Assembly: GCF_000007985.2 (NCBI RefSeq)
Contig: NC_002939.5
Coordinates: forward strand, 3,420,001 to 3,452,000
Direction of reading: 5' to 3'
DNA from: Geobacter sulfurreducens PCA
Lineage (GTDB): Bacteria; Desulfobacterota; Desulfuromonadia; Geobacterales; Geobacteraceae
DNA: 32,000 nucleotides
Positions 122-26,005 of the stretch are shown piece by piece. Each line of letters starts with the position of its first letter. Position 1 is the stretch's first letter. The notes beneath the pieces were generated by a model. The model did no database searches. It was not told the DNA's origin and saw only the letters and a program-made list of their open reading frames with translations. A program made the translations under genes and the position numbers.

Positions 122-149
122 TACATCCTGCTTTTTTCTACGCACCCAC

Positions 150-184
150 GAGCCGCGGCGTCTCTGCACCGCGGCTCTTTTTTT
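150..184 (+). terminator. intrinsic terminator after ssb
   Basis: GAGCCGCGG (150-158) pairs perfectly with CCGCGGCTC (169-177), with a 10-nt loop. A run of 7 T follows directly (178-184). Confidence 0.75.
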
Positions 185-867
185 CATTCGCGGCGCGATG
201 CCCGTTCGAACTTGTACCCCACCCCGTACACTGAATGGATCAGATCCTCGCCGGGAGCGACATCCGCGATCTTTTTCCGCAGTTTTTTGATGTGGCTGTC
301 GATGGTACGGTCGGCAACCACCCGCTCGTCGGGGTAGATGCGGTCCATGAGTTGCTGGCGGCTGTAGATCCTGCCGGGGCTGGCCGCCAGGAACTGGAGA
401 AGCTTGAACTCGACGGCGGTCAAATCCAGTTCGTGACCGTCAAGGGCGGCACGGTAGCATGCCCCGTCCATGACGAGACCGGCCAGTGCCGTTGTCTGAC
501 CCGGTCCGCTACGGCGCAGGACCGCCTTCACCCGCGCCACCACCTCGCGGGGACTGAAGGGCTTGCAGATGTAGTCGTCCGCCCCCAGTTCAAGGCCGAG
601 CAGGCGGTCGATCTCCTCGATCCGCGCCGTGATCATGATGATCGGCACACTGGAAAAGACGCGGACATCCTTGCAGATCTCCAGGCCATCGCGGCCCGGC
701 AGCATCAGGTCGAGCAGAACGAGGTCCGGTGCATGTTCGCGCACCCACGGCGCAGCCTCGGCACCTCCCGCCAGACAACAGACGTCAAATCCCGCCAATC
801 GCAGATAATCGCGCAGCAGGGTGGCAATCTTCTCCTCGTCCTCCACAATGAGAATCGTTCCGGTCAT
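184..867 (-). CDS. OmpR/PhoB-family response regulator, BaeR-like
   Basis: 227-aa ORF. It has a receiver domain (ILIVEDE..., DLVLLDLMLPGRDG, KPF) and a winged-helix output (TIDSHIKKLRKK, YGVGYKF). The segment IEEIDRLLGLELGADDYICKPFSPREVVARVKAVLRR closely resembles E. coli BaeR as I recall it. Its ATG overlaps the kinase stop (ATGA at 864-867). Confidence 0.9.
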   Translation of the reverse strand: MTGTILIVEDEEKIATLLRDYLRLAGFDVCCLAGGAEAAPWVREHAPDLVLLDLMLPGRDGLEICKDVRVFSSVPIIMITARIEEIDRLLGLELGADDYICKPFSPREVVARVKAVLRRSGPGQTTALAGLVMDGACYRAALDGHELDLTAVEFKLLQFLAASPGRIYSRQQLMDRIYPDERVVADRTIDSHIKKLRKKIADVAPGEDLIHSVYGVGYKFERASRRE

Positions 868-2303: not shown

Positions 2304-2410
2304 GGTCCTCGTCCTTGTGCCCGGCGAAACGCTCTCGTGAATGTTGTACCACATCCACCGGGGGTAGAGAGACCGGTATGACAAGCGCCCGGCACTTTTC
2401 CTCATTTCTT

Positions 2411-2428
2411 CCACATTGCGGCCACATT
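2411..2428 (+). promoter_or_regulatory. tandem direct repeat CCACATT-N4-CCACATT, candidate response-regulator box at the -35 position of the spy-like gene
   Basis: CCACATT occurs at 2411-2417 and 2422-2428, an 11-bp period (one helical turn). This lies 7 nt upstream of a TATTAC -10-like hexamer (2436-2441). A third near-copy, CCACATC, is at 2349-2355. Confidence 0.4.
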
Positions 2429-2482
2429 CCCGCGCTATTACTCGGACAGTACGGCAACATCACACAGGAAAGGAGAATCACC

Positions 2483-2959
2483 ATGAAAAAGCAGCTGTGC
2501 ATGATCGCGCTGGTGGGGGCGACGGCATTCGGGACGACGGGCACCTCGTGGTCGCTGGACGGCCCACCGCCACCGGAGCCGCCCCCCATGGGCAAAGGAC
2601 AGGAACACTTTCTGGAGCGGATGGCGAGCGTCCTCAAACTCACCGACGCTCAACAGGCACAGATCGAAGCCCTTATTTCGACCGATGCGGAACAGAATGC
2701 GCCCCTGCACCGGCAGCTGGCGGAAAATGAACGAGCGCTCCGGGAGGCGACGACTGCGGCGAGCTTGGATGAGGCGACGGTACGAGCCCTTGCCGCAACA
2801 AAGGGAAACCTTATGACTGAAATGATTGTCTCCCGCGCAAAGCTCAGAAATGCCATCAACGCCATCCTGACCGCCGAGCAACGCGAACTGGCAGACCGGC
2901 TCGATCCGTTGAAGTACGGCCCGCCGCGACCCCGCCCCGACCGTCCCGGCATGGAGTGA
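2483..2959 (+). CDS. periplasmic Spy/CpxP-family (LTXXQ-motif) stress chaperone-like protein
   Basis: Start ATG 2483 is preceded by AGGAGA (2471-2476). Signal peptide is MKKQLCMIALVGATAFG. Two LTXXQ motifs are present (LTDAQQ, LTAEQR) in a helical Gln/Ala/Glu-rich body. The gene is divergent from the BaeSR-like pair. Confidence 0.8.
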   Translation: MKKQLCMIALVGATAFGTTGTSWSLDGPPPPEPPPMGKGQEHFLERMASVLKLTDAQQAQIEALISTDAEQNAPLHRQLAENERALREATTAASLDEATVRALAATKGNLMTEMIVSRAKLRNAINAILTAEQRELADRLDPLKYGPPRPRPDRPGME

Positions 2960-3027
2960 ACGACGGCTACCCGATAATGAACAGGGGGCCACGCCGCGCT
3001 TCCCCCATTTCGCAAAGGAGACAGACC

Positions 3028-3492
3028 ATGGTAGACAGCATTGGCGGAACCGGGATCAGCATGGGCCACATGAGCGGCATGAAGCGACCCGACCCGAAGG
3101 AGATGTTCAAGAAGGTGGATACCGATGGCGACGGGGCAGTGTCCCAGACGGAACTGCAGGCGATGGTCGAGAAGATGCAGGAGCGGACCGGCCAATCGAT
3201 CAACGTGGAGGAGAGTTTCACCAATGCCGACAGCGACGGCAGCGGCTCCCTCAGCGAAGAGGAACTGAAGGGATTCAGGGAGAGCATGCGGCCGCCCCAC
3301 GAGCGGGAGGCCATGATGGGTGGCGAACCGATGGATGAAAGCGCCACCGCCCTCAAGGACGCCCTCCAGTCGTACCTGGCGAACGCCGACGATCAATCCA
3401 TCGCTGAGCTGATCAGCTTCCTGAAGGGAGCATCGGACTCGGACAGCAGCAGTTCTTCCACATCAACGTCGCTGCTAAGCATCACAACCTGA
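3028..3492 (+). CDS. EF-hand calcium-binding domain protein
   Basis: Start ATG 3028 follows AAGGAG (3015-3020). There are two canonical 12-residue EF loops: DTDGDGAVSQTE (3118-3153) and DSDGSGSLSEEE (3229-3264). The C-terminal tail is Ser-rich. I see no obvious signal peptide. Confidence 0.8.
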   Translation: MVDSIGGTGISMGHMSGMKRPDPKEMFKKVDTDGDGAVSQTELQAMVEKMQERTGQSINVEESFTNADSDGSGSLSEEELKGFRESMRPPHEREAMMGGEPMDESATALKDALQSYLANADDQSIAELISFLKGASDSDSSSSSTSTSLLSITT

Positions 3493-3515
3493 CGCACCAT
3501 ATCCTCCCCGGCTTC

Positions 3516-3560
3516 AAACGGCTAAACCCTGCTCCCTCGGGCGGGGTTTAGCCGTTTTTG
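3516..3560 (+). terminator. intrinsic terminator after the EF-hand gene (stem overlaps the 3' end of the convergent MBL gene)
   Basis: AAACGGCTAAACCC (3516-3529) pairs perfectly with GGGTTTAGCCGTTT (3544-3557). The T run continues to 3559. Confidence 0.65.
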
Positions 3561-4637
3561 CCTCTCTGGCTTCAGCTGCAACCAGCGCAGGCCGCCCGTG
3601 GCCTCGTCCATGCTCACCGGTTCGCCCATCAGCGGAGTTAAGACCGGAATGCCCCGGGCAATGCCCAGGGCGGCTATTCTGTCAAAAGGCTCCCGCCAGG
3701 GGTGCATGGAGAGATCAAAGGTGCCGTTGTGGATCGGGAGCAGGCTCTTGCCTTTCAGGTCGAGATGCGCCTGGATGCTCTCTTCCGGGTGCATGTGGAC
3801 GTTCGGCCAGCGTGCATTGTAGGCACCTGCTTCCAACAAGGTCAGGTCAAAGGGGCCATATTGATCGCCGATCTGCTTGAAGCCGTCGAAATAGCCGGTG
3901 TCACCACTGAAGAACAGGCGCCGGCCAGGGGCAAGGATTACCCATGAAGCCCACTGGGTAAGATTTTTGCCGAAGAAACCGCGTCCGGAGAAGTGTTGCG
4001 CAGGGGTGGCAACAAAGCGGACACCGCCGACGTCGATTCCCTGCCACCAGTCCAGTTGCCGCACCTTTGCCGCCGGCACACCCCAGTCGGCAAGGATGTC
4101 CCCCACCCCGAGCGGCGTCAGGAAATACTCCGTTTTTCCCGCCAGCTTCATGATGGAATCGTGGTCCAGATGGTCGTAATGGTCGTGGGAGATGATTACC
4201 GCCCTGATCGGCGGGAGCTCGTCGATACTGATGGGGGGCGGGTGGAACCGTTCCGGCCCGGCAAACCGTACGGGTGATGCCCGGTCCGAAAACATTGGGT
4301 CGGTTATCCAGAATGCGTCATTAAGCTTCATCAGGACGGTTGAGTGTCCAAGACGGTACACCGTGTTGTTCGGGGCACTCATCAACTGCGCTCCGATCAC
4401 TGTCTGTACCGGGATTTTCCCGGAAGGGCGCGTGTCTGCAGGTTTGTTGAAAAAGAAATCCCACATGACGCGGGCCAGCTCAAGCGGTCCGCCTGTTGTC
4501 ACCTCGACCGGACGTTTCAGGTCACTCGCGAGCGAGAGAGATGACCGGGTCCTGGCGGAACTGGTTTTATTGAACAATGTGGATGCCATAACGATGACGA
4601 CTCCTGCGATCAGGGTATAGAGTATGATTCGTTTCAT
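3522..4637 (-). CDS. MBL-fold metallo-hydrolase (NAPE-PLD-like / Lactamase_B_2 type), membrane-anchored or secreted
   Basis: Contains the HDHYDHLD metal motif and downstream His/Asp ligands. The N-terminal hydrophobic anchor is MKRIILYTLIAGVVIVMAS. I chose the start at ATG 4637 rather than the ORF-track start at 4727. Confidence 0.8.
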   Translation of the reverse strand: MKRIILYTLIAGVVIVMASTLFNKTSSARTRSSLSLASDLKRPVEVTTGGPLELARVMWDFFFNKPADTRPSGKIPVQTVIGAQLMSAPNNTVYRLGHSTVLMKLNDAFWITDPMFSDRASPVRFAGPERFHPPPISIDELPPIRAVIISHDHYDHLDHDSIMKLAGKTEYFLTPLGVGDILADWGVPAAKVRQLDWWQGIDVGGVRFVATPAQHFSGRGFFGKNLTQWASWVILAPGRRLFFSGDTGYFDGFKQIGDQYGPFDLTLLEAGAYNARWPNVHMHPEESIQAHLDLKGKSLLPIHNGTFDLSMHPWREPFDRIAALGIARGIPVLTPLMGEPVSMDEATGGLRWLQLKPERQKRLNPARGSRV

Positions 4638-4660
4638 CGGTTCCCGCCTGCTTGATCGGA

Positions 4661-5032
4661 TCAGATGAAATCCAGCCCGAGTTCTTTCAGCTTTGCGCTC
4701 CCGGGTTTCGTGATGTCCGGGTCCCACCCCCGATCCGTGTAGTACCGGGTGAGCATGGCATCAAAGCTGTCCCGGTCGAGCACCGCCCCCTTCTTCGGGC
4801 CAATGGTGAAGGCATCCTCGAAAAAGCGGTCGGGTATGAAGATGAGTGGGTTCTCCGGAGAAAGCGGGTTGACCCCCGGCTTTTTCAGCCGGTCCCAGAG
4901 GATTTTCATGCCGAGCCCCTGCCCGCCGACGAATCGGTCCAAGTCCGCAGGGGGAACCGCCACCTTTTCAATCTTCCCGGTGGAGAGATTTATGTTCAGA
5001 ATTACGCCATGATATCCCGGTTTCCCGCTCAT
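4661..5032 (-). pseudogene. aldehyde:ferredoxin oxidoreductase (tungsten AOR family) remnant with a large in-frame internal deletion
   Basis: The ORF is 123 aa. Residues 1 to about 66 (GYHGVILNINLSTGKIEKV...FVGGQGLGMKILWD...NPLSPENPLIF) match the AOR N-terminal domain. The remainder (GAVLDRDSFDAMLTRYYTDRGWD...KLKELGL) matches the extreme AOR C-terminus. The roughly 450-aa pterin/Fe-S core expected in 600-aa AORs is absent. A strong AGGAGG RBS and an ATGA overlap with the upstream Fe-S gene are retained. Confidence 0.65.
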
Positions 5033-5478
5033 CTTGAACCTCCTAAATCAGCCGTCCCGTACCAGTTCCGGCTTAACTCGGCCGCAATTTTTTCAGGCCC
5101 GAAGCCGTAGAATTTCCGGTCGGGTCGAACCTCCACATACGAAAGCGCGCCGAAAGGGCACCGTTTGACACATTGCGGGTCGCCGCCGCAGAGCGTGCAC
5201 ATCCGCTCCGGCTTTCCCGTGGCGGGGTTGGGGATAATCACCCCGGTCCTCTGCGCAGCGCACGCCGTGGCGCAACTCCGGCAGCCGGTACATTTCGCGT
5301 AATCCACCAGAACCATCTTCAGGACGGGGTCTCCGGAAAGGGCCCAGGCCGCAGCGTTGATGCCGAACTGGCCGAAGAGGACAAGCCCCCCTCCAAGCCC
5401 GACGCTTTTTATGAAATCCCGCCGGGTGAGGGCTGTTCGTTCATCGCCCTCCTGAGCCTCGATCTGCTCCATCTCCAT
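5029..5478 (-). CDS. Tat-exported 4Fe-4S ferredoxin-type protein (AOR partner-like), unusually short
   Basis: Twin-arginine signal TRRDFIKSVGLGGG. Cys groups are CTGCRSCATAC and CTLCGGDPQCVKRCP. GGAGG RBS precedes ATG 5478. Confidence 0.75.
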   Translation of the reverse strand: MEMEQIEAQEGDERTALTRRDFIKSVGLGGGLVLFGQFGINAAAWALSGDPVLKMVLVDYAKCTGCRSCATACAAQRTGVIIPNPATGKPERMCTLCGGDPQCVKRCPFGALSYVEVRPDRKFYGFGPEKIAAELSRNWYGTADLGGSR

Positions 5479-5535
5479 ACCAACCTCCGTCAGGGCCGGA
5501 CCGGCATCCCGGTCCGCCCTTCGGTTGCGTCGCCA

Positions 5536-6594
5536 TTACCCTTTCAGCGACGCCATATCGATGGAAAAGCGATACTTCACATCCGACTTGAGCAGCCGCT
5601 CGTAGGCCTCATTGATCTTCTGAATCGGGATGACCTCCACATCGGCGGTGATGTTGTGCTGGCCGCAGAAGTCGAGCATCTCCTGGGTCTCGGCGATGCC
5701 GCCGATGATCGACCCGGAAAGGCTGCGGCGGCCGAACAGGAGAGCGAAGGCGGATACCTCCAGCGGCTTCTCCGGCGCGCCAACCAGGGTGATGGTGCCG
5801 TCGCGGCCGAGCATGTTGAGGTAGGCGTTGATGTCATGGTCGGCGGCGATGGTGTCGAGGATGAAGTCGAACGTGCCGGCGTGCTGCTGCATCTCTTCCG
5901 CATTGGTGGAAACGATGACCTCGTGGGCACCGAGACGAAGGGCATCCTCCTTCTTGCCCGGAGAGGTGGTGAAAACCACCACCTGGGCACCGAACGCACG
6001 GGCGAACTTGACCCCCATGTGCCCCAGTCCGCCGAGGCCGACGACACCGGCCTTCTTCCCCCTGATGTCGCCCCAGCGGCGAATCGGCGAGTAGGTGGTG
6101 ATGCCGGCGCAGAGCAGCGGCGCGACTCCGGCCAGGTCGAGGGTGGCGGGGACATGCAGCACGAAGCGCTCATCGACCACGATGCTCTCGGAGTAGCCGC
6201 CGTAGGTGACCGGCGCTGCCTGGTGCTTGTCCGGCGAGTTGTAGGTGAAGGTGGCGTCTGGGCAGAACTGCTCCAGGTTCGACTGGCAACTCGGGCAGGT
6301 GTGATCCGAGTCGACCAGGCAGCCGACGCCGGCAAGATCGCCCGGTTTGAATTTCGTGACAGCGGAACCGACCCTGGTAATCCGGCCGACGATCTCGTGC
6401 CCCGGCACGCAGGGGTAGACCGTGGGCATGACGCTGTTCCACTCGTCCCGCACCGTGTGGAGATCCGAGTGGCAGACGCCGCAGAAGAGGATCTCGATCT
6501 GCACGTCGCGCTCGGTCGTCTCGCGGCGGGGAATGGTGTCGAGGGCCAGCGGCGAAGCGGCGCTGGCGGCAGAATAGGCTCTGGCTTTGTACAT
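5536..6594 (-). CDS. Zn-dependent NAD(P)-alcohol dehydrogenase, YahK / cinnamyl-ADH type
   Basis: Contains GVCHSDLH, PCVPGHEIVG, structural-Zn cysteines CPSCQSNLEQFC and a GLGGLGHMG Rossmann motif. AAGGAG RBS is present. Confidence 0.9.
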   Translation of the reverse strand: MYKARAYSAASAASPLALDTIPRRETTERDVQIEILFCGVCHSDLHTVRDEWNSVMPTVYPCVPGHEIVGRITRVGSAVTKFKPGDLAGVGCLVDSDHTCPSCQSNLEQFCPDATFTYNSPDKHQAAPVTYGGYSESIVVDERFVLHVPATLDLAGVAPLLCAGITTYSPIRRWGDIRGKKAGVVGLGGLGHMGVKFARAFGAQVVVFTTSPGKKEDALRLGAHEVIVSTNAEEMQQHAGTFDFILDTIAADHDINAYLNMLGRDGTITLVGAPEKPLEVSAFALLFGRRSLSGSIIGGIAETQEMLDFCGQHNITADVEVIPIQKINEAYERLLKSDVKYRFSIDMASLKG

Positions 6595-6630
6595 GGCTGA
6601 TTCTCCTTGGCGGTTTGTTTTTACACTGCC

Positions 6631-6698
6631 TTGCCCCTCACCCCGGCCCTCTGGGTCTTCTCGCCTCGCCCGTTGGGGAGAGGGACGATGAGGGGCAA
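6631..6698. repeat. nested imperfect palindrome, REP-like extragenic element
   Basis: Outer arms TTGCCCCTCA (6631-6640) and TGAGGGGCAA (6689-6698) are perfect. Inner arms are CCCTCT and AGAGGG. The element sits between the AKR stop and the ADH start. Confidence 0.5.
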
Positions 6699-6703
6699 CA
6701 TGA

Positions 6704-7720
<1,017 letters not shown>

Positions 7721-7875
7721 TCACCCGCGTTCCCTTTCGGGTGGTTAAAACGTACCCCAGGCGAGGCGAGGGACGGTAGACCGATCCTGCCTGATTCTTG
7801 CCTGATCGCGCGACGGCTCGACAAAGGGGTTGAAGAAAGAAGGGAAGGTCCGTAGGATGATACGCGGAGGTAGCG

Positions 7876-8814
7876 ATGCAACATAGGGATGACACTGATC
7901 GGATCGAGTGCTGCGAGTTGACAGCCGCGCTGGAAGGACTGGTAGCGAGAATTGCCCGATGGACCGAGACGGAGGAACGGGTCACCACCGCGGTGCCGGG
8001 CTTGTTCCTCTTTCGGAAGGAACATCCAACCGAGCCGATGAGCGGCATGTACGAGCCGAGCATCTGTCTGGTCGCGCAGGGGGCGAAGCGGGTGCTGCTC
8101 GGGGACGACACATATGTGTATGACGCCCGCAATTACCTGATCACCTCGGTGCACCTGCCGACGGTCGTGCAGATCACTGAGGCAAGTCCCGAGCAGCCAT
8201 ATCTGGGACTCAGCATGCGGCTCGACCAGCGGGAGATCTCGCAGCTGATGGTTGACAGCAATCTGCCGCCCCCTCCGCCACAGCAATCGACCCGCGGGAT
8301 GGCGACCAGCGACGTGACGCTGCCGCTGCTCTCCGCCTTTCATCGCCTCATCGACCTGCTCGGCGAGGAAAAGGACATCCCGATCCTCGCGCCGATCATC
8401 CAGCGCGAGATCATCTACCGGCTGCTCGTCGGCGACCAGGGGGCCCGGCTGCGCCAGATCGCCTCGGCCGGAAGCCAGAGCCAGCAGATCGCCCGGGCCA
8501 TCGAATGGCTGAAGGGAAACTTCACCCAGCCGCTCCGGATCGACGATCTCGCCGAGCAGGCCCGCATGAGCAGCTCGACCTTTCATCATCACTTCCGCTC
8601 GATGACCGCGCTGAGCCCCCTCCAGTACCAAAAGCACCTGCGACTGAACGAGGCACGGCGCCTGATGCTTACCGAGCGGTTCGATGCCGCTACCGCGGCA
8701 TTCCAGGTCGGCTATGAGAGCCCTTCGCAGTTCAGCCGCGAATACAGCCGGCTGTTCGGAGCGCCCCCGCTGCGGGACATCGCGAGACTGCGTCAAAGTC
8801 CGGTCGCTGAATAG
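7876..8814 (+). CDS. AraC-family transcriptional regulator (AraC_N-type sensing domain plus HTH_18)
   Basis: C-terminal double HTH (MSSSTFHHHFRSMTALSPLQYQKHLRLNEARRLM...GYESPSQFSREYSRLFGAPP). GGAGG lies 5 nt before ATG 7876. The gene is divergent from the AKR gene. Confidence 0.9.
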   Translation: MQHRDDTDRIECCELTAALEGLVARIARWTETEERVTTAVPGLFLFRKEHPTEPMSGMYEPSICLVAQGAKRVLLGDDTYVYDARNYLITSVHLPTVVQITEASPEQPYLGLSMRLDQREISQLMVDSNLPPPPPQQSTRGMATSDVTLPLLSAFHRLIDLLGEEKDIPILAPIIQREIIYRLLVGDQGARLRQIASAGSQSQQIARAIEWLKGNFTQPLRIDDLAEQARMSSSTFHHHFRSMTALSPLQYQKHLRLNEARRLMLTERFDAATAAFQVGYESPSQFSREYSRLFGAPPLRDIARLRQSPVAE

Positions 8815-8926
8815 CCTGATCACCGCCAGGGGGCAGATCCGCCACGGTGTCGATGCTCCGGGTCAGTGGCGAACGATAAATCGGCCGGAGCCTTTTCGGA
8901 TCAATGGTCTGCCCCCCAAAAAGCGC

Positions 8927-8955
8927 TTGCAAATCACCGGGTGGAACCGCATAGT
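8927..8955 (+). promoter_or_regulatory. candidate sigma70-type promoter for the AhpD-like/MATE unit
   Basis: TTGCAA (8927-8932), 17-nt spacer, CATAGT (8950-8955). Found by eye only. Confidence 0.3.
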
Positions 8956-8998
8956 TCCCATGCTCGGACATGAGGTTCACGGAAAAGGAGCGATGGCC

Positions 8999-9256
8999 AT
9001 GAAAATCCGTAAAAAGATTCTCGATTTCGAGTACGAAGAGGTCCTCGATGCCCGGACGCGGGAACTGATCCGGGTCGGCTGCGCCGTGGCAGTGGGGTGT
9101 CCTACCTGACTGAAGAAACACTTCGCGGCCGCGAAGGAGGCCGGCGCCACGGACGCCGAGCTAAAGGAGGCCCTGGCCTACGGGATCATCGCACCATCCG
9201 GGCGGGCCAAGAATTTCGTTCTGAACATGGCCGGGGAACTGGAACTCGGTGACTGA
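8999..9256 (+). CDS. AhpD-like (carboxymuconolactone decarboxylase family) protein with in-frame TGA, probable selenoprotein (C-P-T-Sec redox motif)
   Basis: Translation is M(A)MKIRKKILDFEYEEVLDARTRELIRVGCAVAVGCPT-[TGA 9107-9109]-LKKHFAAAKEAGATDAELKEALAYGIIAPSGRAKNFVLNMAGELELGD*. The same frame stays open for 48 more codons to TGA 9254-9256. The TGA sits exactly at the second Cys of the AhpD CxxCxxxH motif. AAGGAG (8985-8990) is 8 nt from ATG 8999; ATG 8993 is an alternative start. Confidence 0.72.
9107..9136 (+). promoter_or_regulatory. UGA plus bacterial SECIS-like hairpin
   Basis: UGA (9107-9109), 11-nt spacer, then CUUCGC-GGCC-GCGAAG (9121-9136). This is a perfect 6-bp stem with a 4-nt loop beginning GG. 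The loop starts 17 nt after the UGA. Confidence 0.6.
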
Positions 9257-9278
9257 CAGGGAGGCTTAAGAAGAACGG

Positions 9279-10637
9279 ATGGCGAAGAGAGGGTTCAGGG
9301 CACGGTACGCAAGGGAACGGAGCAAACGCGCCTCCATCCGCCGCAACGTTATGAACCTGTCGCTGCCGGTACTCCTGTCCTCGCTCTTCCAGCGGCTCGT
9401 GGCCATCGTCGACATCTTTCTCGTGGGGGGGCTGGGAGCCGCGGCCATTGCCGCCACGGGACTCGGCCAGCTTCTCGTGTTCGTGACGATGACCGTGTTC
9501 TGGGGGCTTGCCACCGGCACCACGGTAGTGATCGCCCACCTCCGGGGGGCGGGACAGCGCCGGGAAGCGCGGCGGGCGGCCTTTGCGGCGAGTCTCGCCT
9601 GCGCCGGCATGACGGCGGCGGCCTCCGCGCTCGGCTGGTTCTTCAGCGACGACCTGGCCGCGTTCCTCGGTGCCCGGGACGACGTGCTCCACCTGGCAGC
9701 CGGCTATACCCGGCTGGTCTTCCTCTATCTTGCCTTTACCACTGGCCTCAACATCCTTTCGGCCATCATGCACGGCATCGGCAACACCCGCACGCCCATG
9801 CAGGCCATTATCTTGGTCAACATTCTCCACGTGCTCATCGCCTGGCCCCTCATCTACGGCAAGCTCGGTCTCCCCGCCATGGGGGTCACCGGCGCGGCCA
9901 TCGCCATCAATGCTTCCGAGGCCATCGGCTTTCTCTACCTGCTGGTGCAAGCCCTGAGGCTGGACTACATCCGCATCGGCCGACCCGACACGGGACTCAT
10001 GGGCCGCATCTGGCGAGTGGGGTGGCCCGTGGCCCTGGAGCGAATTGCCCAGCAGGGGGGACAGCTCTTCTACTCGAAATTCATCATCGGCTACGGCACC
10101 GCCGCCTACGCAGCTCACCAGATCGGACTCTCCATCGAATCCCTGTCCTTCATGCCGGGTGCGGGCATGGGGATCGCCGCCGCCACCCTCATGGGACAGG
10201 CCCTGGGGGCAAAAAAATACCGCCGGGCGCGGATCAGCCATCGTGAGGCCCTGCGCCTGGCGGTTATTGTCATGGGGACCATGGCGGCCGTCTTCCTGAC
10301 AGTACCCGGGCCGCTCATCGGGCTCTTCACCCGGGACCCGGCGGTCATCGAAAACGGCATTGTGTTCCTGCGGCTGGTGGCCTTCGCCCAAGTGCCGTTG
10401 GCCCTCTCCTTCGTCTATGCCGGGAGCCTGCGCGGCACCGGCGACACCTTCTACGTCTTCCTGGTCACCCTCGGCGTCATGTGGGGGGTGCGGGTCTTTC
10501 TCTCATGGGTGGCGTCCGACTGGTGCCACCTTTCCCTCTACGCCGTCTGGGGCGTCTTCGTCATCGACTGGTACGTGCGAGCCGCCGCCTTCTGGTGGCG
10601 GTACCGCCAGCGGGACCTGCACGCGGTCATCATCTGA
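9279..10637 (+). CDS. MATE-family efflux transporter
   Basis: 452 aa and polytopic. The N-terminal motif LSLPVLLSSLFQRLVAIVDIFLVGGLG and the two-fold repeat architecture are typical of NorM/DinF-type MATE proteins. The exact start is uncertain because the RBS is weak. Confidence 0.85.
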   Translation: MAKRGFRARYARERSKRASIRRNVMNLSLPVLLSSLFQRLVAIVDIFLVGGLGAAAIAATGLGQLLVFVTMTVFWGLATGTTVVIAHLRGAGQRREARRAAFAASLACAGMTAAASALGWFFSDDLAAFLGARDDVLHLAAGYTRLVFLYLAFTTGLNILSAIMHGIGNTRTPMQAIILVNILHVLIAWPLIYGKLGLPAMGVTGAAIAINASEAIGFLYLLVQALRLDYIRIGRPDTGLMGRIWRVGWPVALERIAQQGGQLFYSKFIIGYGTAAYAAHQIGLSIESLSFMPGAGMGIAAATLMGQALGAKKYRRARISHREALRLAVIVMGTMAAVFLTVPGPLIGLFTRDPAVIENGIVFLRLVAFAQVPLALSFVYAGSLRGTGDTFYVFLVTLGVMWGVRVFLSWVASDWCHLSLYAVWGVFVIDWYVRAAAFWWRYRQRDLHAVII

Positions 10638-10683
10638 ACCGAAGCGGGCGCGGCTTCGACATCGTGAAGGCCCGCCCCGTTCC

Positions 10684-11346
10684 CTACTTCTGCACCCACC
10701 TGCCGTTCTGGAGCTGTATCCACCACCCCGGCCGGGCCTCCTCCCGCCTGGTGTCGGCATAGGTCGCCGCCGCCTTGGGGAGCACCTGACTGAGGGCCTG
10801 CTTGGATTCCTTCTGTTTGTTGAGCCTGATGATCGCCCGGGCCATGCCGGTGATGACGGTCTTACGGTTGTCGTTCTCGGCCTTGACCACCGCGTCGTCG
10901 CCGGGAGCCGCCTTTGCCGCGTCCCTCATGGTCACGAGCCCCTGGTTGGTCTCACCCACGACCCCCTGGCTCCGGAGCTGGTCGAGCTTGGGCAGGCGTG
11001 CCCGCATCTCGTCATAGGCCTTGAGCACCTCAGGCATGCTGGACAGTTCCACGGCCAACTGATCCGCATAATCGTCAGCCGCCCAGGCTTCGGTCACCAG
11101 CGACAGGGACGGCAGACTGTTCCACAGGCGGCTCTGGGGCTTGTCCGCCGGCGGCTGCCCCTCGGCCGGTTTCTGGTCGGGCGCGGGCTTCTGCTCCCCC
11201 TCCCGTCCAAGGAGCATATCGTCCAGCGACTTGTAAGCCTCTTTGACGGCCTTTTCGGGGAAATACACATTGACGGTAATGATGGCGCAGGCGGCCAGAA
11301 GGCCGCAGAGCCCCATCAGGGTTCCGGCGAAGAGCTTCCTGATCAT
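10684..11346 (-). CDS. lipoprotein with C-terminal YdbL (DUF1318) domain and an N-terminal YnbE-like module
   Basis: Lipobox LLAAC. A Pro/Gln-rich linker follows. The C-terminal part LDQLRSQGVVGETNQGLV...VKAENDNRKTV...ARPGWWIQLQNGRWVQK resembles the YdbL family. It lies immediately downstream of the YdbH-like gene. Confidence 0.7.
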   Translation of the reverse strand: MIRKLFAGTLMGLCGLLAACAIITVNVYFPEKAVKEAYKSLDDMLLGREGEQKPAPDQKPAEGQPPADKPQSRLWNSLPSLSLVTEAWAADDYADQLAVELSSMPEVLKAYDEMRARLPKLDQLRSQGVVGETNQGLVTMRDAAKAAPGDDAVVKAENDNRKTVITGMARAIIRLNKQKESKQALSQVLPKAAATYADTRREEARPGWWIQLQNGRWVQK

Positions 11347-11425
11347 CGCTTCCTCCTTGCTGATTAGCTACCGTGCACTATATCACATGAAGCCCCAATT
11401 GGAAGGACTGCGCCGGCGAGTGGCA

Positions 11426-14400
11426 TCAGTCGCGCCACTGAAACTCCATCTCCACCGGCTTTTCGGCCGGTGCCGGCTCCCCGGCCACCGCCTTGCCGCG
11501 GGTGGCCGCCTCCTTGATGGCTCCGAACAGGTGCGTCAGGGCAATCCGGTTCTGGACCGGGGCGACCGAAACGCTCAGGTCCTTGATGCCGAAGATATTC
11601 GTATGGGCCAGGTCCAGGGTCGTGAAGGTGAGATACCCGTTCTCCAGGTAGGCGCTGACTTCGCCCCGATCGTAGGGACGGTCGTCGCGAAAAAAGAAGC
11701 CGCGCAGCTTTTTTCCTGCCAGGCGCTGGAGGAATTCACGGGAAAGAAGCATGCGCTCGCGAGTCGACTCCCGAGCCCAGAGGTCGGTGAAGCCGGTGAG
11801 CCCGTCCATCCCGGCCCCTTGGCCGTGGAGGCTGAGCAGGCCGTCGACCCGGCCGGAAACGTATCCGCGGATCTTGGGGACTGCATCGCAGAGTCGCGCA
11901 AGGCTCAGGTCGTAAACCAGAATATCGCCTCCGTAGACGATGCCTCCCCGGGCCGTCACGAACCCTCTCCCCAGAAGTTGTCCCTCGTAGAGCCCTGACC
12001 GGAGCGAGCTGATCTCCAAGGTGCCGTTGGCGGCCCGCAGCCCCAGGGTCGTCTCTCCCAGCTCCAGGGGACCGAAGCGGATCTTCCCCACGGTGAGAGT
12101 ATGATCCCCGGGGCCCTGTTGCCGGAGCATTTCCTGCAGGCGGGCAAAATTCTCCCGACTGAAACTCAGCTCCTGGCGGGGGCGCTTGGCCGCTTCGGCA
12201 GCCGTCCGGAGCGAGAAGGGAATCGTCCCGCCGATCCCGCTGACATTGAGTTTCTGGGACGGAAAATCTAAGCGGACCCCGGAGAGCGTCGCAGTCCCGT
12301 CTACCATCCCGGCTTTTCCCGCCAACGCCACCTCGGCAGCGACGGCCACATCTCCCTCCAGGGTCGCCTCCTGCACCGGCCGCGGCAGGACATTGATCAG
12401 GGGGTCCACCAGGGACGTGAGAGAGGTACGCGGCAGCGTTACGGAAAATGTCCCTGTCCGCTCCGGCGAACGGAACCGATCCATGCTTCCCGCAATCCGA
12501 ACGGAGGCCCCTTCTCCCAGAACGGCCACCGCCTCGCGCAGGTCGAGCCGCTCCCCGGCCACCCGGGCCGCCACCCGGGCTTCCGCACCGGACAGGAGCC
12601 GCTTACCCCCCGCTCCGTCCAGGGCTATGCCGGATGCCCGTGCTTCGAGCCCGCAGTGCAGCCCTGCTCCCCCCGCAAAGCCGCCGTCAACACTGATGGT
12701 GGCCTCCCCCCCGGCCACTGCGGGAATCCGGCCGGTGGCGGGCATTAGTGGAGCGATGGCCGCCAGCTTCGCCTGCCGAAGCGAACCGGAGAACCGAAGA
12801 TCCTCCAGCGGGGACCGTGCGGGAAAATCGATCCGGGCACTAAGTGCCCCCCCCAGCAGATGCCCTCCCACCACCGCTTCCCCCTTCTCCCGGCCGAGCG
12901 TGAACCTAACCGAGGGCGCGCCGATGGGTTTCCCCTGCAACGTCAGGTGCGCCGCCGCCCCGCTCCCTTCCACTTCCGGCCAGCCCGGCGTGCCCCCATG
13001 ATAGGTTCCCCGGATGGATGCATTGATTCCTCCGGCCCCTCCTGTTCCGTGAGTCACTGCTCCCTCCGTCACCTCCAGGGTAAAGGGGCGGACTGTCCCT
13101 GCCGGCGCGTCCGGCAGCCGGACCACCACCAGCCGGGCCGTACCGGCTGAGGGGCCAAAGCGAAAACGGGGGGCGTCAAGCATCAGTGAACGGCCGTCAA
13201 GCCTGAACGGAGCCGCCAACTCTCCCTGACGGCCGCCGTAGGAGGCGTCGTCGAGCAGAAGTGTGCCGGCGGCAGACGCGGCGCCCTGGCGCCAGGCAAA
13301 ACGGGCGCGCAAGTCACCCTTCCCGAGAGTGGCCGGCTTTCCCTTGATCGACAGGGCTGCGCCGTTCACCGCCGCAGCGAGTTCGCCGACAAAAGGACCG
13401 CGAACGCCGCCCGCCAGATCCAGGGAAAGCGCAGCGGTGCCGCGCTCGGGGCGCAGGCCGTAGGGTTCCAACCGAGTGGCGGCAAGCATGAGGGACGAGG
13501 AAGGTACCCGCAAAGAGAGCTGGAGTGGCTGCGCCGCCGTCGGCCTGAATCGCCCGCCCCCCTCCAACGGGATACCCATGACCCGGCAGGACATGCCGGC
13601 AACCCGTGCCTCCGTCGGCTTAAAGTGCGAGGACACCTCCGCCTCGAACGGAATGCGGAGTCCATCGACCATGACGTCTCCTGCCGTCCGGGGCGAGAGC
13701 AACTGGCCGGACAGGCGCCATCCCCTTGCCGCAGGGGATACGGAAACCGTCCCGTCGACGTCCCGGGCGACGACCCTCGCGCCCATTGCAATGGTCCCGC
13801 CACTCAGTGTCACAGCACCGTCAACGCTGGTTACCCCCCGTGCGCGGTCGCCGACAACCCGTATTCCCCGCGTCCGGAGCATCCCCGCCGTGACGATACG
13901 CGTGCCGGACGCCGGCAGGAAACGTCCCAACCGGGCCAGATCCACCTCGTCAAGAGTCAAACGGGCGTCAAAGCGCCCCTTGCGCCTTACTTGTTCCATG
14001 GTCCCCGTCAACCGGGCCGCGACGAGATCGCTCAGAACCAGATCCAGGCGGTCGAGCACAGCACGGTCCGCCTGCATGTCATAGGAAACCGCTGCCTGGA
14101 GATTGCCGCCCAGCGGAATCCTCTGTCCCCGGGCCATAAGCACACCATTCTGCACCGCGCCGCCCCCGTCAATACGGATCATGCCCTCCCGCAGCTGAGC
14201 CCGTACAGCCAAGGAACCGTGGGCTCCGGCGAGGTCTAGGGCCCGGCCGCTGCTCCGCTGCGAAAAGGATGCGAGGGTAATAGACGGGGCGGAGAGGGTA
14301 AGATCAAAGGCGGGGCGGGCCCCCATGCGACCCCGTCCCGCCAGGCTGAACCGGTTTCCGGCGGCGTCGGCAAAAGCGAGTTCAAGCCGGGAGTCGGTCG

Positions 14401-14953
14401 TCCCCTGCGTTGACAGGTCGCGCAGATTCAGATCGATCCCTTCCATGCGATGGCCTTCGACCGCCAGGCTACCCCGGCGCACCACAACCTCTCCGATGCG
14501 GGTATCCGGGGCAGGCTTTTTCCCCTTCATTCCCGTTGCCAGGCGCGCCAGGTTCCAGGTACCGGACCGATCTCGCACCAAGGTAAGGCGTACCCCGTCC
14601 AGAATGATGCGGTGCAGGGTCCGCTCCCCGCGGATGAGGGCTCCCCAGCGGGGGACAACGGTAACGGCATCAGCTGCGGCGAGGACGCCTGCGGGGAACC
14701 CCGCAGGGTTGCCGATGGCAATGCCTCTGACGGCAATGCCCATGCCCGAGGTATGGAGCGCGGTAATGGTAACGGGACAGCCAAGGGTTCGGGAAAGCAG
14801 GCGGGACAGGTGACGTGTGGCCAGGGGAGACGCCAGATAGAGCTTAACCAGGATCAAGATCAGGAGACAGAGGAGAAGCACCGCGACCACCGCCATTGCC
14901 ATGCGGCGACCGCCCCGGCGTTGTGGTGTCTCCATCTGGTCAGAATGCGGCAT
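11426..14953 (-). CDS. YdbH-like AsmA-family intermembrane lipid-transport protein
   Basis: 1175 aa with a single N-terminal TM (MAMAVVAVLLLCLLILILV) and a long beta-rich repetitive body. The C-terminal block (YEGQLLGRGF...SGRVDGLLSLHG...YLENGYLTFTTLDL...IKDLSVSV) resembles the YdbH C-terminal domain. GGAGGGAGA RBS precedes ATG 14953. Confidence 0.75.
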   Translation of the reverse strand: MPHSDQMETPQRRGGRRMAMAVVAVLLLCLLILILVKLYLASPLATRHLSRLLSRTLGCPVTITALHTSGMGIAVRGIAIGNPAGFPAGVLAAADAVTVVPRWGALIRGERTLHRIILDGVRLTLVRDRSGTWNLARLATGMKGKKPAPDTRIGEVVVRRGSLAVEGHRMEGIDLNLRDLSTQGTTDSRLELAFADAAGNRFSLAGRGRMGARPAFDLTLSAPSITLASFSQRSSGRALDLAGAHGSLAVRAQLREGMIRIDGGGAVQNGVLMARGQRIPLGGNLQAAVSYDMQADRAVLDRLDLVLSDLVAARLTGTMEQVRRKGRFDARLTLDEVDLARLGRFLPASGTRIVTAGMLRTRGIRVVGDRARGVTSVDGAVTLSGGTIAMGARVVARDVDGTVSVSPAARGWRLSGQLLSPRTAGDVMVDGLRIPFEAEVSSHFKPTEARVAGMSCRVMGIPLEGGGRFRPTAAQPLQLSLRVPSSSLMLAATRLEPYGLRPERGTAALSLDLAGGVRGPFVGELAAAVNGAALSIKGKPATLGKGDLRARFAWRQGAASAAGTLLLDDASYGGRQGELAAPFRLDGRSLMLDAPRFRFGPSAGTARLVVVRLPDAPAGTVRPFTLEVTEGAVTHGTGGAGGINASIRGTYHGGTPGWPEVEGSGAAAHLTLQGKPIGAPSVRFTLGREKGEAVVGGHLLGGALSARIDFPARSPLEDLRFSGSLRQAKLAAIAPLMPATGRIPAVAGGEATISVDGGFAGGAGLHCGLEARASGIALDGAGGKRLLSGAEARVAARVAGERLDLREAVAVLGEGASVRIAGSMDRFRSPERTGTFSVTLPRTSLTSLVDPLINVLPRPVQEATLEGDVAVAAEVALAGKAGMVDGTATLSGVRLDFPSQKLNVSGIGGTIPFSLRTAAEAAKRPRQELSFSRENFARLQEMLRQQGPGDHTLTVGKIRFGPLELGETTLGLRAANGTLEISSLRSGLYEGQLLGRGFVTARGGIVYGGDILVYDLSLARLCDAVPKIRGYVSGRVDGLLSLHGQGAGMDGLTGFTDLWARESTRERMLLSREFLQRLAGKKLRGFFFRDDRPYDRGEVSAYLENGYLTFTTLDLAHTNIFGIKDLSVSVAPVQNRIALTHLFGAIKEAATRGKAVAGEPAPAEKPVEMEFQWRD

Positions 14954-14976
14954 TGGACTGTCTCCCTCCGAAGGAG

Positions 14977-15005
14977 ACTGTAACCGGTAAGCACTGCCCT
15001 GGCAA
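14977..15005 (-). promoter_or_regulatory. candidate promoter of the ydbH-like operon
   Basis: Minus strand reads TTGCCA (15005-15000), 17 nt, TACAGT (14982-14977). The inverted repeat CTGCCCT/AGGGCAG overlaps the -35. Confidence 0.35.
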
Positions 15006-15111
15006 GGGAGGGCAGGAAAAAGAGGGGTGCAAAAACGACGGTGCGATTGAGGTCCGGTCGAAGACGGCGTGACGACGGGCGCGCTCCCGAACCATCCGTT
15101 ATGAATTCGTT

Positions 15112-15146
15112 TAAAATGAAAAAGCCCCGCAATAAGGGGGCTTTTT
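15112..15146 (-). terminator. intrinsic terminator after hup (A/T-flanked, potentially bidirectional)
   Basis: Minus strand reads GCCCC-cttattgc-GGGGC followed by TTTTTCATTTT. On the plus strand the GCCCC (15124-15128) / GGGGC (15137-15141) stem is flanked by an A5 run and a T5 run. Confidence 0.7.
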
Positions 15147-15198
15147 CATCCTTTGTGAAGGGAGAACCCGTACCGTCTGGAATGACGGTGTACCGCCG

Positions 15199-15483
15199 CT
15201 ACTTCTTCTTGCCGGCAACCGCGTCCTTGAGGGCCTTGCCCGGACGGAACTTGGGAACCTTGGCGGCAGCGATCTTGATCTCCTTGCCGGTCTGGGGGTT
15301 ACGGCCGGTGCGCGCCTTGCGGGTGGACACCTCGAAGCTACCGAAACCGACCAGGGTCACTTTGTCACCCTTCTTAAGGGCGTCGCTGACGGCGCTGATA
15401 ACGGCGCCAACGGCCTTGTCTGCGGCCGCCTTGGTCAGGTTGGCAGATTTCGCTACGGCATCCACAAGTTCAGCTTTGGTCAT
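15199..15483 (-). CDS. hup: HU-family nucleoid-associated DNA-binding protein
   Basis: [25 protein letters not shown]...[47 protein letters not shown] 15483 lies 7 nt after AAGGAGG. The ORF-track start at 15489 is a TTG two codons upstream. Confidence 0.95.
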
Positions 15484-15517
15484 GGTCAACCCTCCTTTGT
15501 TGGTAATTCTGGCAGAT

Positions 15518-15545
15518 ACTATAGACAGAAATTTCCACTTTGCAA
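15518..15545 (-). promoter_or_regulatory. candidate strong promoter of hup
   Basis: Minus strand reads TTGCAA (15545-15540), 16 nt, TATAGT (15523-15518). An A/T-rich UP-like tract lies upstream (15546-15590). Confidence 0.5.
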
Positions 15546-15678
15546 GGGATTTATTTTCGTCAACTTCATTTTTTTATCGGCGGAAACCCTTACCGTATCA
15601 GGTTTTTTGGCCACCTGACGTCCGCAACTCCAGCACTGGCGCGAACTCTACATATTAACATGCTGATATCACAAGTAT

Positions 15679-18132
15679 TTATGGCACACCATCCTCGGAG
15701 GATTCACCATCGTAAGCGGTCGGTTCGGTGCCCGCAATGAAGCACTCCTGCACGGCGCCGTCGCTTCCCTCCCGGGCCAGCCGACCGGTGCGGGGATTGA
15801 TGGTGGCAAAAGTAACGTTGGGAGGCGTCTCGAAGTCGCGGGAAGGAATCCCGGCCACCGCCCGCCGCATGAATTCGGTCCAGATGGGAGCCGCAGCCTG
15901 TCCGCCCGATCCGCCGGCCCCCAGGGAGCGCTCCTGATCGTAGCCGACCCAGACTCCGGCCACCAGTTGGGGGATGTACCCCACGAACCATGCATCTTTC
16001 ATATCGTTGGTGGTTCCGGTCTTGCCGGCCACCGGCCGGCCGACGGCCCTGGCGCGCTGTCCGGTACCGCTCTGGACAACGCTTTCCATGAGATTGGTCA
16101 TGATGTAGGCGGTTTCAGGCGCAATCACCGGCACCGCCGTTGACGCCGAGTCCCCGGCCGTGGCCGGAGGGGCGGGCGACGCCTCGAGGGGAGACGATTC
16201 GGCCGACGTCATGACGGAGAATCTGGGAATGACCGGCGGTGCTGTTTCCTCAAGAGTCCGCCCTTCCGCATCCTCGACCCTGGTGACGAAGTAGGGGGTG
16301 GTCCGATACCCGCCCGAAGCGAACACCGCGTAGGCAGAGGTCAGCTCAAGAGGGGTAAGACTGGAAGAGCCCAGGGCCAGGGTCAGGTTGGCCGAAAGGG
16401 GAGACGTTATGCCCAGCTTCTTGGCGTACTCGATGGCATAGTCCACGCCGATCTGCTCCAGGATCTTGACGCTCACCACGTTGATGGAGTTGGTGAGGGC
16501 CTCCCGCATGGTCACGTTGCCCCGGTAGATGTTGTCGTAGTTTTTGGGTTTCCAGGCCTTTTCCTTGCCGCTTTCATACTCCACCGGCGAGTCGTCGAAG
16601 ATGGTGGCAGGGGTAATCCCCTTGTCCAGGGCGGCGGCATAGATAAGCGGCTTGAACGCGGAGCCGGGATTACGCTTTGCCTGCAATGCCCGGTTGAACT
16701 GGCTTTTGCGGAAGTCGTACCCCCCGACCATCGCCTTGACCGCGCCGGAGAGGGGATCCAGCGCCACCACTGCCGCCTGGGCCTCGGGTTCCTGATCAAG
16801 GGCAAAGACAGCCCCTTTCTTGTCCGCGTCGGGGGTAACGACCGATACGAGGATCACGCTGCCGAGCGACAGGAATTTACCCTTCACCTCCTGCTTGCCC
16901 CAGGCGTTCACCAACTGCACCTTGCCGGCCCAGGCCATATTCTTGCGCGAGAGAGTGCCGGTGCGGTCACCGACCCGTACGGTCACGTCCCCCCGGACGG
17001 GGTCCACGGCGGTGACCACCCCCTGGTAGGTGGCTCCCTGCTTGAGAGAAACAGTATCGATGCCGTCTTCCACCTTATCGCAGACTGCAGCCACCGCAGC
17101 CTCGGCCAGATAGGCCGTTGCGCCGCGGAATCCCTGCCGCTTGTCCACGTTCTTGAGACCGTTCACCACCGCCTCATAGGCCGCCTTCTGCATCTCGGCG
17201 TTCATGGTGGTGTAAATCCGCAACCCTTCCTTGTAAAGCTGCTCCTCACCGTAGCGGTCTTCCAAGGCGATCCGGATATGCTCCAGGAAATAGGCGGACT
17301 GTTCGCTGTTGACCTTCTTCATGGACTGGATGACGATGGGAGTGGCCCGGGCATGATCCGCCTCGGCCTGGGTGACGTAGCCTTCCTTTACCATCCGTTC
17401 AAGGACATAGGCCTGGCGTTCCCGCGCCCGGTCAAGATGCTTGATGGGAGAATAGGCGTTGGGGGCCTTGGGCAAGCCTGCGAGCATTGCCATTTCGGCC
17501 AGGTTCAGTTGCTCGACGTTCTTGCCGAAGTAGGTCTCCGCCGCCACCTGGACGCCGTACGAACCGGCGCCAAGATAAATCTGGTTCAGATATATATAGA
17601 GGATATCGTCCTTGGAAAGCCGCTCCTCCATCCGTTTGGCGAGAACCGCCTCCTTGAGTTTGCGGGTGTAGCTCTTCTCGGGGGTAAGGAGCATTGACTT
17701 GGCCACTTGCTGGGTAATGGTCGATGCCCCCTCTTTTTTGCGCAGGGAGATGAGGTTTTTAACCGCGGCCCGGACAATGCCCACGTAATCCAGACCCTTG
17801 TGCTGGTAGAAGTTGGAATCCTCGGCCGAGACAAAAGCCTGGACGAGCCGGCGAGGCAGCTTCTCCACCGGCACCACCGTCCGCCGTTCCAGATAGAACT
17901 CTCCCACCAGGCTCCCATCGTCGCCGAAAACCTGGGAAACGATGGGAGGCTTGTAATCGGCCAACCGGTCCACTTTCGGGAGGGTCGCCATGAGGTAGAA
18001 CAGATATCCCCCCAGCGCGAGCAGGGCTGCCACCGCAAGACATATCGATGTTATAGCAACAATTTTCAATGGACTTTTGCCCCGTCGACGGTTTATGTTC
18101 CGGGGACCGGGGTTCTGCCTACCAACTGTCAT
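15679..18132 (-). CDS. mrcA: class A penicillin-binding protein 1A (glycosyltransferase plus transpeptidase)
   Basis: GT51 motifs SAEDSNFYQHKGLD and GASTITQQVAK are present. Transpeptidase motifs are SAFKP, SIN and KTGTTND. N-terminal TM anchor. Confidence 0.93.
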   Translation of the reverse strand: MTVGRQNPGPRNINRRRGKSPLKIVAITSICLAVAALLALGGYLFYLMATLPKVDRLADYKPPIVSQVFGDDGSLVGEFYLERRTVVPVEKLPRRLVQAFVSAEDSNFYQHKGLDYVGIVRAAVKNLISLRKKEGASTITQQVAKSMLLTPEKSYTRKLKEAVLAKRMEERLSKDDILYIYLNQIYLGAGSYGVQVAAETYFGKNVEQLNLAEMAMLAGLPKAPNAYSPIKHLDRARERQAYVLERMVKEGYVTQAEADHARATPIVIQSMKKVNSEQSAYFLEHIRIALEDRYGEEQLYKEGLRIYTTMNAEMQKAAYEAVVNGLKNVDKRQGFRGATAYLAEAAVAAVCDKVEDGIDTVSLKQGATYQGVVTAVDPVRGDVTVRVGDRTGTLSRKNMAWAGKVQLVNAWGKQEVKGKFLSLGSVILVSVVTPDADKKGAVFALDQEPEAQAAVVALDPLSGAVKAMVGGYDFRKSQFNRALQAKRNPGSAFKPLIYAAALDKGITPATIFDDSPVEYESGKEKAWKPKNYDNIYRGNVTMREALTNSINVVSVKILEQIGVDYAIEYAKKLGITSPLSANLTLALGSSSLTPLELTSAYAVFASGGYRTTPYFVTRVEDAEGRTLEETAPPVIPRFSVMTSAESSPLEASPAPPATAGDSASTAVPVIAPETAYIMTNLMESVVQSGTGQRARAVGRPVAGKTGTTNDMKDAWFVGYIPQLVAGVWVGYDQERSLGAGGSGGQAAAPIWTEFMRRAVAGIPSRDFETPPNVTFATINPRTGRLAREGSDGAVQECFIAGTEPTAYDGESSEDGVP

Positions 18133-22685: not shown

Positions 22686-22739
22686 GGTGATACCTGTCGC
22701 TGCTTTACTGTTTTGTGCGGTATGGATGGAGGTTAGCGA

Positions 22740-25998: not shown

Positions 25999-26005
25999 AC
26001 CGGCG

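Follow-up and report, generated by a model that had tools for sequence, protein, structure and literature searches.

GSU3128 of Geobacter sulfurreducens: an AhpD-like selenoprotein gene with an in-frame UGA and a conserved hairpin in its coding sequence

In a stretch of 32,000 nucleotides (nt) of Geobacter sulfurreducens PCA DNA (contig NC_002939.5, forward-strand positions 3,420,001 to 3,452,000; this whole stretch is called the window, and positions are counted from its first letter), an open reading frame (ORF) of AhpD type meets an in-frame TGA at the place of the second cysteine of a CxxC motif, and a short hairpin follows. The locus raises the question of whether this TGA is a genuine stop, leaving a truncated gene, or is decoded as selenocysteine (Sec) with the hairpin acting as a bacterial selenocysteine insertion sequence (SECIS). 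We conclude with high confidence that positions 8999-9256 encode the 85-residue selenoprotein GSU3128, the 'distant AhpD homolog' of G. sulfurreducens. This identification is correct but already known; the protein appeared in print in 2006, and a curated model is dedicated to its family.

Reading frame, family and conservation

Translation of the + strand frame from 8993 gives MAMKIRKK...GCPT (MAMKIRKKILDFEYEEVLDARTRELIRVGCAVAVGCPT) up to a TGA at 9107-9109, then exactly 48 sense codons (LKKHFAAAKEAGATDAELKEALAYGIIAPSGRAKNFVLNMAGELELGD), and ends at a second TGA at 9254-9256. The interrupted frame with its 48 stop-free codons, which a first-pass annotation of the same DNA had pointed out, is therefore present. 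The features of the gene and its upstream region are as follows.

8999-9256, + strand: selenoprotein coding sequence, GSU3128 family, 'distant AhpD homolog'; 85 residues, MKIRKK...GCPT-U-LKKH...ELELGD (from translation, profile matches and published identity)
9107-9109, + strand: in-frame TGA, predicted to be read as selenocysteine (TGA at this column in 85/85 loci; Cys in the homologue P0011 and in homologues in the Protein Data Bank (PDB))
9098-9121, + strand: active-site motif C-P-T-U-L-K-K-H, with Cys36, Sec39 and His43 in the 85-residue numbering
9121-9136, + strand: putative SECIS hairpin, stem 9121-9126 paired with 9131-9136, loop GGCC at 9127-9130 (from fold, pairing, codon entropy and geometry)
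8984-8990, + strand: ribosome-binding site AAAGGAG, 8 nt before ATG 8999, read from the sequence
8927-8955, + strand: predicted promoter-like element, TTGCAA (8927-8932), 17-nt spacer and CATAGT (8950-8955)

The first-pass annotation had placed the start at 8993. The start codon is most likely ATG 8999 instead, because ATG 8999 is conserved in KN400 while ATG 8993, like ATG 8960, is not; because AAAGGAG is well spaced from 8999; because the KN400 record (CP002031) carries an 85-residue gene call beginning at the equivalent of 8999; and because the alignment to the NCBIfam profile NF041047 begins at residue 3 of the 87-residue version. The sequence GGAAAGGAG at the ribosome-binding site is kept among relatives. 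Further upstream, the block TTGCAA-N17-CATAGT is conserved in close relatives (the window, KN400 and L005-L008) while its flanks diverge, which suggests a promoter; at the equivalent place L011 and L012 have TTGACA-N17-CATAGC. The block scores 8/12 against the consensus, under the threshold of the promoter scan, and the sigma-70 promoter scan returned no promoter above threshold.

When Cys was put at the TGA and the full-length product was searched, as the first-pass annotation had suggested, it matched NF041047 ('GSU3128 family (seleno)protein') with residues 3-84 against profile positions 1-83 of 84, at 168.1 bits (E = 3.2e-50; curated cut-off 110 bits). The same product matched the Pfam carboxymuconolactone decarboxylase family (CMD, PF02627) at 54.4 bits (1.3e-14; cut-off 23) and the AhpD core domain TIGR00778 at 42.7 bits (cut-off 27.8). 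The truncated 38-residue peptide gave a CMD match of 6e-4, below the family threshold, so that CMD passes its threshold for the read-through product only. The motif C-P-T-[TGA]-L-K-K-H at 9098-9121 fits CxxU/CxxC followed by xxxH, and alignment A2 shows no variation at Cys36 or His43. In the solved structures nearest by sequence, 7y4r (RclX), 3bey, 2ouw and 5dik, the second Cys of CxxCxxxH is aligned to the TGA column, and Cys also stands there in P0011. The proposal of an AhpD/CMD core with Sec at the second Cys of CxxCxxxH is upheld by these alignments.

The AlphaFold model of P0011, a natural Cys homologue 73% identical to the window protein, has five helices and a mean confidence (predicted local distance difference test, pLDDT) of 78. 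Its PDB matches are almost all CMD/AhpD proteins with a template-modelling (TM) score of about 0.6, at Foldseek E-values of 7e-3 or weaker because the domain is so small. The fold predicted from this model is all-helical and AhpD-like, and GSU3128 belongs to the carboxymuconolactone-decarboxylase/AhpD superfamily as a minimal member with a single domain. It shares with Mycobacterium tuberculosis AhpD (MtAhpD) and the superfamily at large the helical CMD core and the CxxCxxxH signature, with Sec here for the second Cys. It comprises 85 residues in a single minimal domain, whereas the matched MtAhpD chains have about 170; MtAhpD is too dissimilar for a sequence-level match and its fold-level matches are weak (E about 1). 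The closest solved relative by sequence is RclX of Pseudomonas aeruginosa (PDB 7y4r; E = 7e-9, CxxC aligned), also a small CxxC protein of the CMD type, which has Cys where the window protein has Sec. RclX is AhpD-like, is induced by the AraC-type regulator RclR and is needed for resistance to HOCl and HOSCN (PMC7950407).

Conservation was assessed in a genome scan with one genome per species, which yielded 201 relatives. The best 80 of these 201 were analysed, all of them from Geobacterales or Desulfuromonadales; they contribute one locus each, and adding the window with four near-identical loci makes a set of 85. The TGA occupies the Sec column in 85/85 loci, and in every one of them the frame past it stays open for 44 to 60 codons. 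Downstream residues G+12, A+13, E+17, A+23, Y+24, G+25, P+29 and G+31 (numbered from the TGA) are invariant (81/81), yet each is written with two to four synonymous codons. Because these residues are fixed while their synonymous codons vary, the alignment shows protein-level purifying selection acting past the TGA; the 48 downstream codons are conserved, where the first-pass annotation had named a lack of such conservation as evidence against a selenoprotein. Within the family, a Cys form at the Sec column was found only in the metagenomic P0011, with TGA in all 80 species. TGA is also the ordinary stop of 4/9 confident genes in the window, the terminal stop of this gene included, so that its meaning at 9107 must depend on context.

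The protein is not new. Zhang et al. 2006 (PMC1794560, Table 3) list a 'distant AhpD homolog' among eight G. sulfurreducens selenoproteins, SelD and FdhA also being listed, and supplementary file 4 of that paper gives the G. sulfurreducens sequence as MLGHEVHGKGAMAMKIRKK...GCPTULKKHF...ELELGD, with U. Translated from ATG 8960, with U for the TGA, the window gives exactly this sequence. The mature region is thus the same, with the 2006 start 13 codons further upstream, at an ATG that is not conserved and falls in the inferred promoter and transcription-start region. The NF041047 family and the 2006 protein agree with the present gene in amino-acid sequence, in a full-length hidden Markov model match and in the CxxU motif, with which a 2026 review also lists NF041047. 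The first-pass annotation was right to assign the gene to a known prokaryotic selenoprotein family, and understated the case, since this exact protein had been published in 2006 and its family appears in the 2026 review. For discovery little changes: protein, Sec codon and family date from 2006, and the NCBI annotation pipeline has a dedicated model.

The first-pass expectation that ORF callers truncate the gene holds in part. Naive calls and the protein database give split fragments, dozens of them, ending in ...GCPT, ...GCPA or ...GCPD or beginning with MKKHF, and for the C-terminal half callers often choose the Leu codon as start. It does not hold for the KN400 record with its 85-residue gene, nor in view of the dedicated NCBIfam model. 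A protein search found 13 apparently full-length homologues, 12 of them with W at the Sec column and one, P0011, with Cys (CSECMRHH). The W is a translation artefact, because the DNA encoding P0008, whose protein entry has W, has TGA there; in the W entries an alternative code was presumably applied to the TGA. The W-bearing entries are P0001-P0010, P0012 and P0013, from public metagenome gene calls, and L085 3001-3255 is listed with these. The GSU3128 family is therefore misrepresented in uncurated metagenomic collections, mostly as halves or with a spurious Trp, and users of such collections will mis-count the gene.

The hairpin downstream of the UGA

The perfect hairpin CUUCGC-GGCC-GCGAAG begins 11 nt after the TGA (spacer 9110-9120), and its loop, which starts with GG, begins 17 nt after it, as the first-pass annotation had described. 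The published bacterial SECIS (bSECIS) model (PMC13188914) asks for a loop of 3-9 nt, a stem of 4-16 base pairs (bp), a G at loop position one or two, and a UGA-to-loop distance of 16-37 nt. With its 4-nt loop, 6-bp stem, GG at the loop start and 17-nt spacing, the window hairpin has this geometry, in agreement with the first-pass description. When the 60 nt beginning at the TGA are folded, the minimum-free-energy structure contains it; this structure has -21.6 kcal/mol with a second, non-conserved hairpin included. Thermodynamics alone being unremarkable, the case for the hairpin rests on comparative evidence.

Synonymous-codon entropy runs from 0.4 to 2.0 bits across the gene, except at codons +4 to +9, where it drops to 0.00, 0.00, 0.61, 0.14, 0.10 and 0.00 bits. 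These codons, CAC TTC GCG GTC GCG AAG, are nearly fixed (81/81, 79/79, 72/81, 52/53, 80/81 and 80/80), whereas at other places in the gene these amino acids are encoded by a mix of codons; Phe at +36, for example, is written 35 times as TTC and 46 times as TTT, compared with TTC in 79/79 at +5. The frozen 18-nt block coincides with the hairpin. Among 78 distinct sequences from the 81-sequence alignment, the six stem pairs are standard in 99.6% of cells, and shuffled and slid pairing controls score far lower than the stem. L058 has a double change in the stem from U-A to C-G, at the cost of Phe-to-Leu and Lys-to-Arg replacements. Loop positions one and four covary, as G-C in 68 sequences, C-G in 5, A-U in 4 and G-U in 1. 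Taken as a comparative signal, this shows constraint on the hairpin at the RNA level, and together with the TGA column in 85/85 loci it goes well past what chance would give. The 80-species set gives a clean in-silico picture of a SECIS inside a coding sequence, with six frozen codons, a GGUC-type loop and a covarying closing pair, and could guide SECIS models for Desulfuromonadota.

An alternative helix in the 45-nt segment, pairing columns 5-9 with 15-19, was considered and rejected; in the 81-sequence alignment 85% of its cells pair, with no covariation and no better than shuffles. One locus departs from the common pattern: in L080 1788-1832, from a metagenome-assembled genome (Deltaproteobacteria BP5.bin119), HYALAK replaces HFAVAK and the usual stem is broken, and RNAfold predicts a hairpin 3 nt further downstream, CGCCUU-GGCA-AAGGCG, with a loop starting with G. 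This predicted structure may represent replacement of the SECIS by sliding.

Comparison with Escherichia coli helps to place the element. In the E. coli minimal SECIS the upper stem-loop starts 11 nt after the UGA (PMC8659212). The window hairpin has the same 11-nt offset as the fdhF SECIS, a small apical loop and a G at the SelB-contact position. At the loop residues corresponding to fdhF G23 and U24, the G is present and the window has C for U, while 52/81 family members have U; the extended lower stem of fdhF, which reaches back to the UGA, is not part of the window element. By analogy, the hairpin is a putative element of another sub-type that would work like that of E. coli.

Decoding of the UGA and competing explanations

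The preferred reading is that UGA 9107-9109 would be decoded as Sec and not as a stop. The hairpin at 9121-9136, with its G-rich tetraloop, would act as a bacterial SECIS and bring to the ribosome SelB loaded with GTP and Sec-tRNA(Sec). At the second TGA, which comes 49 codons later and has no such hairpin, translation would end. Standard SelB/SECIS-dependent insertion of Sec at position 39 would then give the active site Cys36-Pro-Thr-Sec39-x-x-x-His43. Because Sec would occupy the place of the second Cys of an AhpD-type CxxC, GSU3128 is most likely a selenol/thiol oxidoreductase. It could serve as a peroxide- or oxidant-detoxifying enzyme, or as the reductase of another peroxidase, by way of an intramolecular Se-S bond.

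Part of the selenium machinery is documented. Supplementary file 3 of PMC1794560, described as covering SelA, SelB, SelD and YbbB, has four G. sulfurreducens entries, two of them SelA- and SelB-type sequences; going by the description of the file, the other two would be SelD and YbbB.

Several observations weigh against decoding of the UGA as Sec through this hairpin. The 60-nt fold has a shuffle z of only -1.96, thermodynamically modest and weak evidence alone. The isolated 16-nt hairpin has -7.1 kcal/mol against a published cut-off of -7.5, although the span covered by that cut-off is uncertain, and the hairpin is absent from the minimum-free-energy fold of the 45-nt segment computed with RNAfold. 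The consensus loop, GGUC in 52/81 sequences, differs from the GGCC of the window. The bulged U17 of the E. coli fdhF SECIS is absent here, and none of the aligned sequences has a bulged U in the stem. Rfam, run on the whole window at gathering thresholds and on 9050-9220 at permissive E-values, found no SECIS or other RNA family; as no family for bacterial SECIS elements matched, this outcome carries no information and does not count as a negative. The window has no tRNA-Sec gene; selA, selB and selD were not searched there, and that the genome has them is taken from published work. A full-text literature search for the name 'GSU3128' gave no match, and no 75Se labelling, mass spectrometry or activity assay was found. 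Among the neighbourhoods compared, no partner protein is conserved across the family.

Three other explanations were weighed. The UGA might be read through without selenium, by a near-cognate tRNA for Trp, Cys or Arg or under an altered code, with the hairpin merely stimulatory. Stop-codon read-through is stimulated by hairpins in other systems, and 12 database homologues are recorded with W at this column. The W entries lose their force, however, once the TGA in the P0008 DNA is taken into account, and an altered code sits badly with TGA as the regular terminator of 4/9 confident window genes, this gene among them. The column is moreover that of the redox-active Cys of CxxC in homologues, a classic Cys/Sec pairing, the loop and spacing fit the rules for SECIS elements of the SelB type, and PMC1794560 credits the organism with SelA, SelB and seven other selenoproteins. 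We consider selenium-free decoding to have a very slight chance of being right.

It is equally improbable that the palindrome CTTCGCGGCCGCGAAG has nothing to do with recoding and functions in the DNA or on the minus strand, for example by binding a protein or by terminating minus-strand transcripts. In the window the DNA palindrome is perfect, and the terminator scan flags the minus strand here, where a T-rich tail follows. Against this, no minus-strand gene converges on the hairpin, and the loops GGUC, GGGC or AGGU of most species leave no perfect DNA palindrome there; conservation follows the + strand, keeping the stem and a G as second loop nucleotide at constant spacing from a conserved TGA. 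The minus-strand terminator call was rejected as a palindrome artefact.

The poorest of the three, with next to no probability left to it, is that the TGA is a true stop, in a decayed gene or between two separate short ORFs (36 and 48 codons): gene callers do yield the halves as separate proteins and the truncated peptide does retain its weak CMD match, but the TGA and an uninterrupted frame persist in all loci across an order under purifying selection on both sides, a pseudogene would have gathered frameshifts and other stops, the recognisable domain arises only from both halves together, and a conserved RNA hairpin stands at the SECIS position.

Neighbouring genes and the strain-variable island

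Two neighbours are relevant.

9279-10637, + strand: MATE-family efflux transporter gene, 22 nt downstream of the selenoprotein gene (Pfam MatE 2.7e-59; TIGR00797)
7876-8814, + strand: upstream AraC-family regulator gene with AraC_N and HTH_18 domains, given for context only

The terminator scan found no + strand terminator between the selenoprotein and MATE genes, and the two are probably co-transcribed in this genome. The window MATE protein is 100% identical to its counterpart in KN400 (CP002031), and an orthologous MATE gene lies directly downstream in 32/80 species. The AraC gene was found at this place only in the window and in the near-identical contig L003; KN400, L005 and L007 have a divergent MarR gene in its stead. 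In other genomes the selenoprotein gene stands after glnE, facing DUF116, fmt and def, before an MFS transporter gene, before a short-chain dehydrogenase gene, or after a gene for an amine-oxidase-type flavoprotein. No ahpC or lipoamide-system gene was seen beside it.

The first-pass annotation had proposed that the gene heads a unit with the MATE exporter next to the AraC regulator, with a role in redox or xenobiotic responses. Both neighbours are indeed present here, but the MATE gene accompanies fewer than half of the species and the AraC gene is strain-specific. The unit with AraC reflects local gene order, not a family trait, because AraC occurs only in the window and one near-identical contig and because the segment 122-8915, in which it lies, is replaced in KN400. 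The window gene resembles rclX in adjoining an AraC-family gene, although here the adjacency is strain-specific. A pairing of the RclR-RclX type was rejected; the window AraC protein reaches 34.9 bits against a cut-off of 400 for the RclR profile NF040475, in the helix-turn-helix region only, and the AraC gene is absent from this position in KN400 and the other relatives.

A broader idea combines two elements. GSU3128 would be a near-obligate selenoprotein across Geobacterales/Desulfuromonadales, since all 80 species have the TGA and a single metagenomic Cys form was found; it would also belong to an undescribed two-step system in which the selenol enzyme reduces or modifies an oxidised or electrophilic small molecule and a transporter expels the product. 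The second element draws on the position of the gene directly upstream of an exporter, MATE in those 32 species and MFS in at least one other, adjacency being its sole support. We regard the combined idea as speculative and rather unlikely.

Where the window has its island of about 8.8 kb (122-8915), KN400 has about 9.3 kb of unrelated sequence. The window island encodes a response regulator, a histidine kinase, an EF-hand protein, a metallo-beta-lactamase-fold protein, a zinc alcohol dehydrogenase, an aldo-keto reductase and the AraC protein, and the KN400 segment encodes DsbB, DsbA, an arylsulfotransferase, a histidine kinase, a response regulator, a short-chain dehydrogenase/reductase and MarR. 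The right edge of the divergence enters the selenoprotein gene, with 7 mismatches, nearly all of them synonymous, over the 108 nt that lead up to the TGA. The last mismatch to KN400 is at 9103, and there are none from 9107 to 16000, which places a putative recombination junction immediately ahead of the Sec codon and the extremely conserved SECIS block.

Elsewhere in the window, ARAGORN called a 634-nt permuted 'tmRNA*' at 20372-21005 on the minus strand. The call falls within the isoleucyl-tRNA synthetase ORF (19766-22618, minus strand), Rfam gives no tmRNA match for it, and it is almost certainly spurious. Predicted ORFs of 658, 567 and 205 residues at 22593-26169 (minus strand) and 15041-15658 (+ strand) have no Pfam match at 1e-5, and are either real or shadow ORFs of GC-rich sequence. 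Finally, L003 5123-5494, corresponding to about 4573-4944 of the window on the minus strand, encodes a 123-residue product with both AFOR_N and AFOR_C domains beside a small 4Fe-4S ferredoxin-like ORF; it resembles what is left of an aldehyde:ferredoxin oxidoreductase gene, or a faulty call of one, within the strain-variable island.

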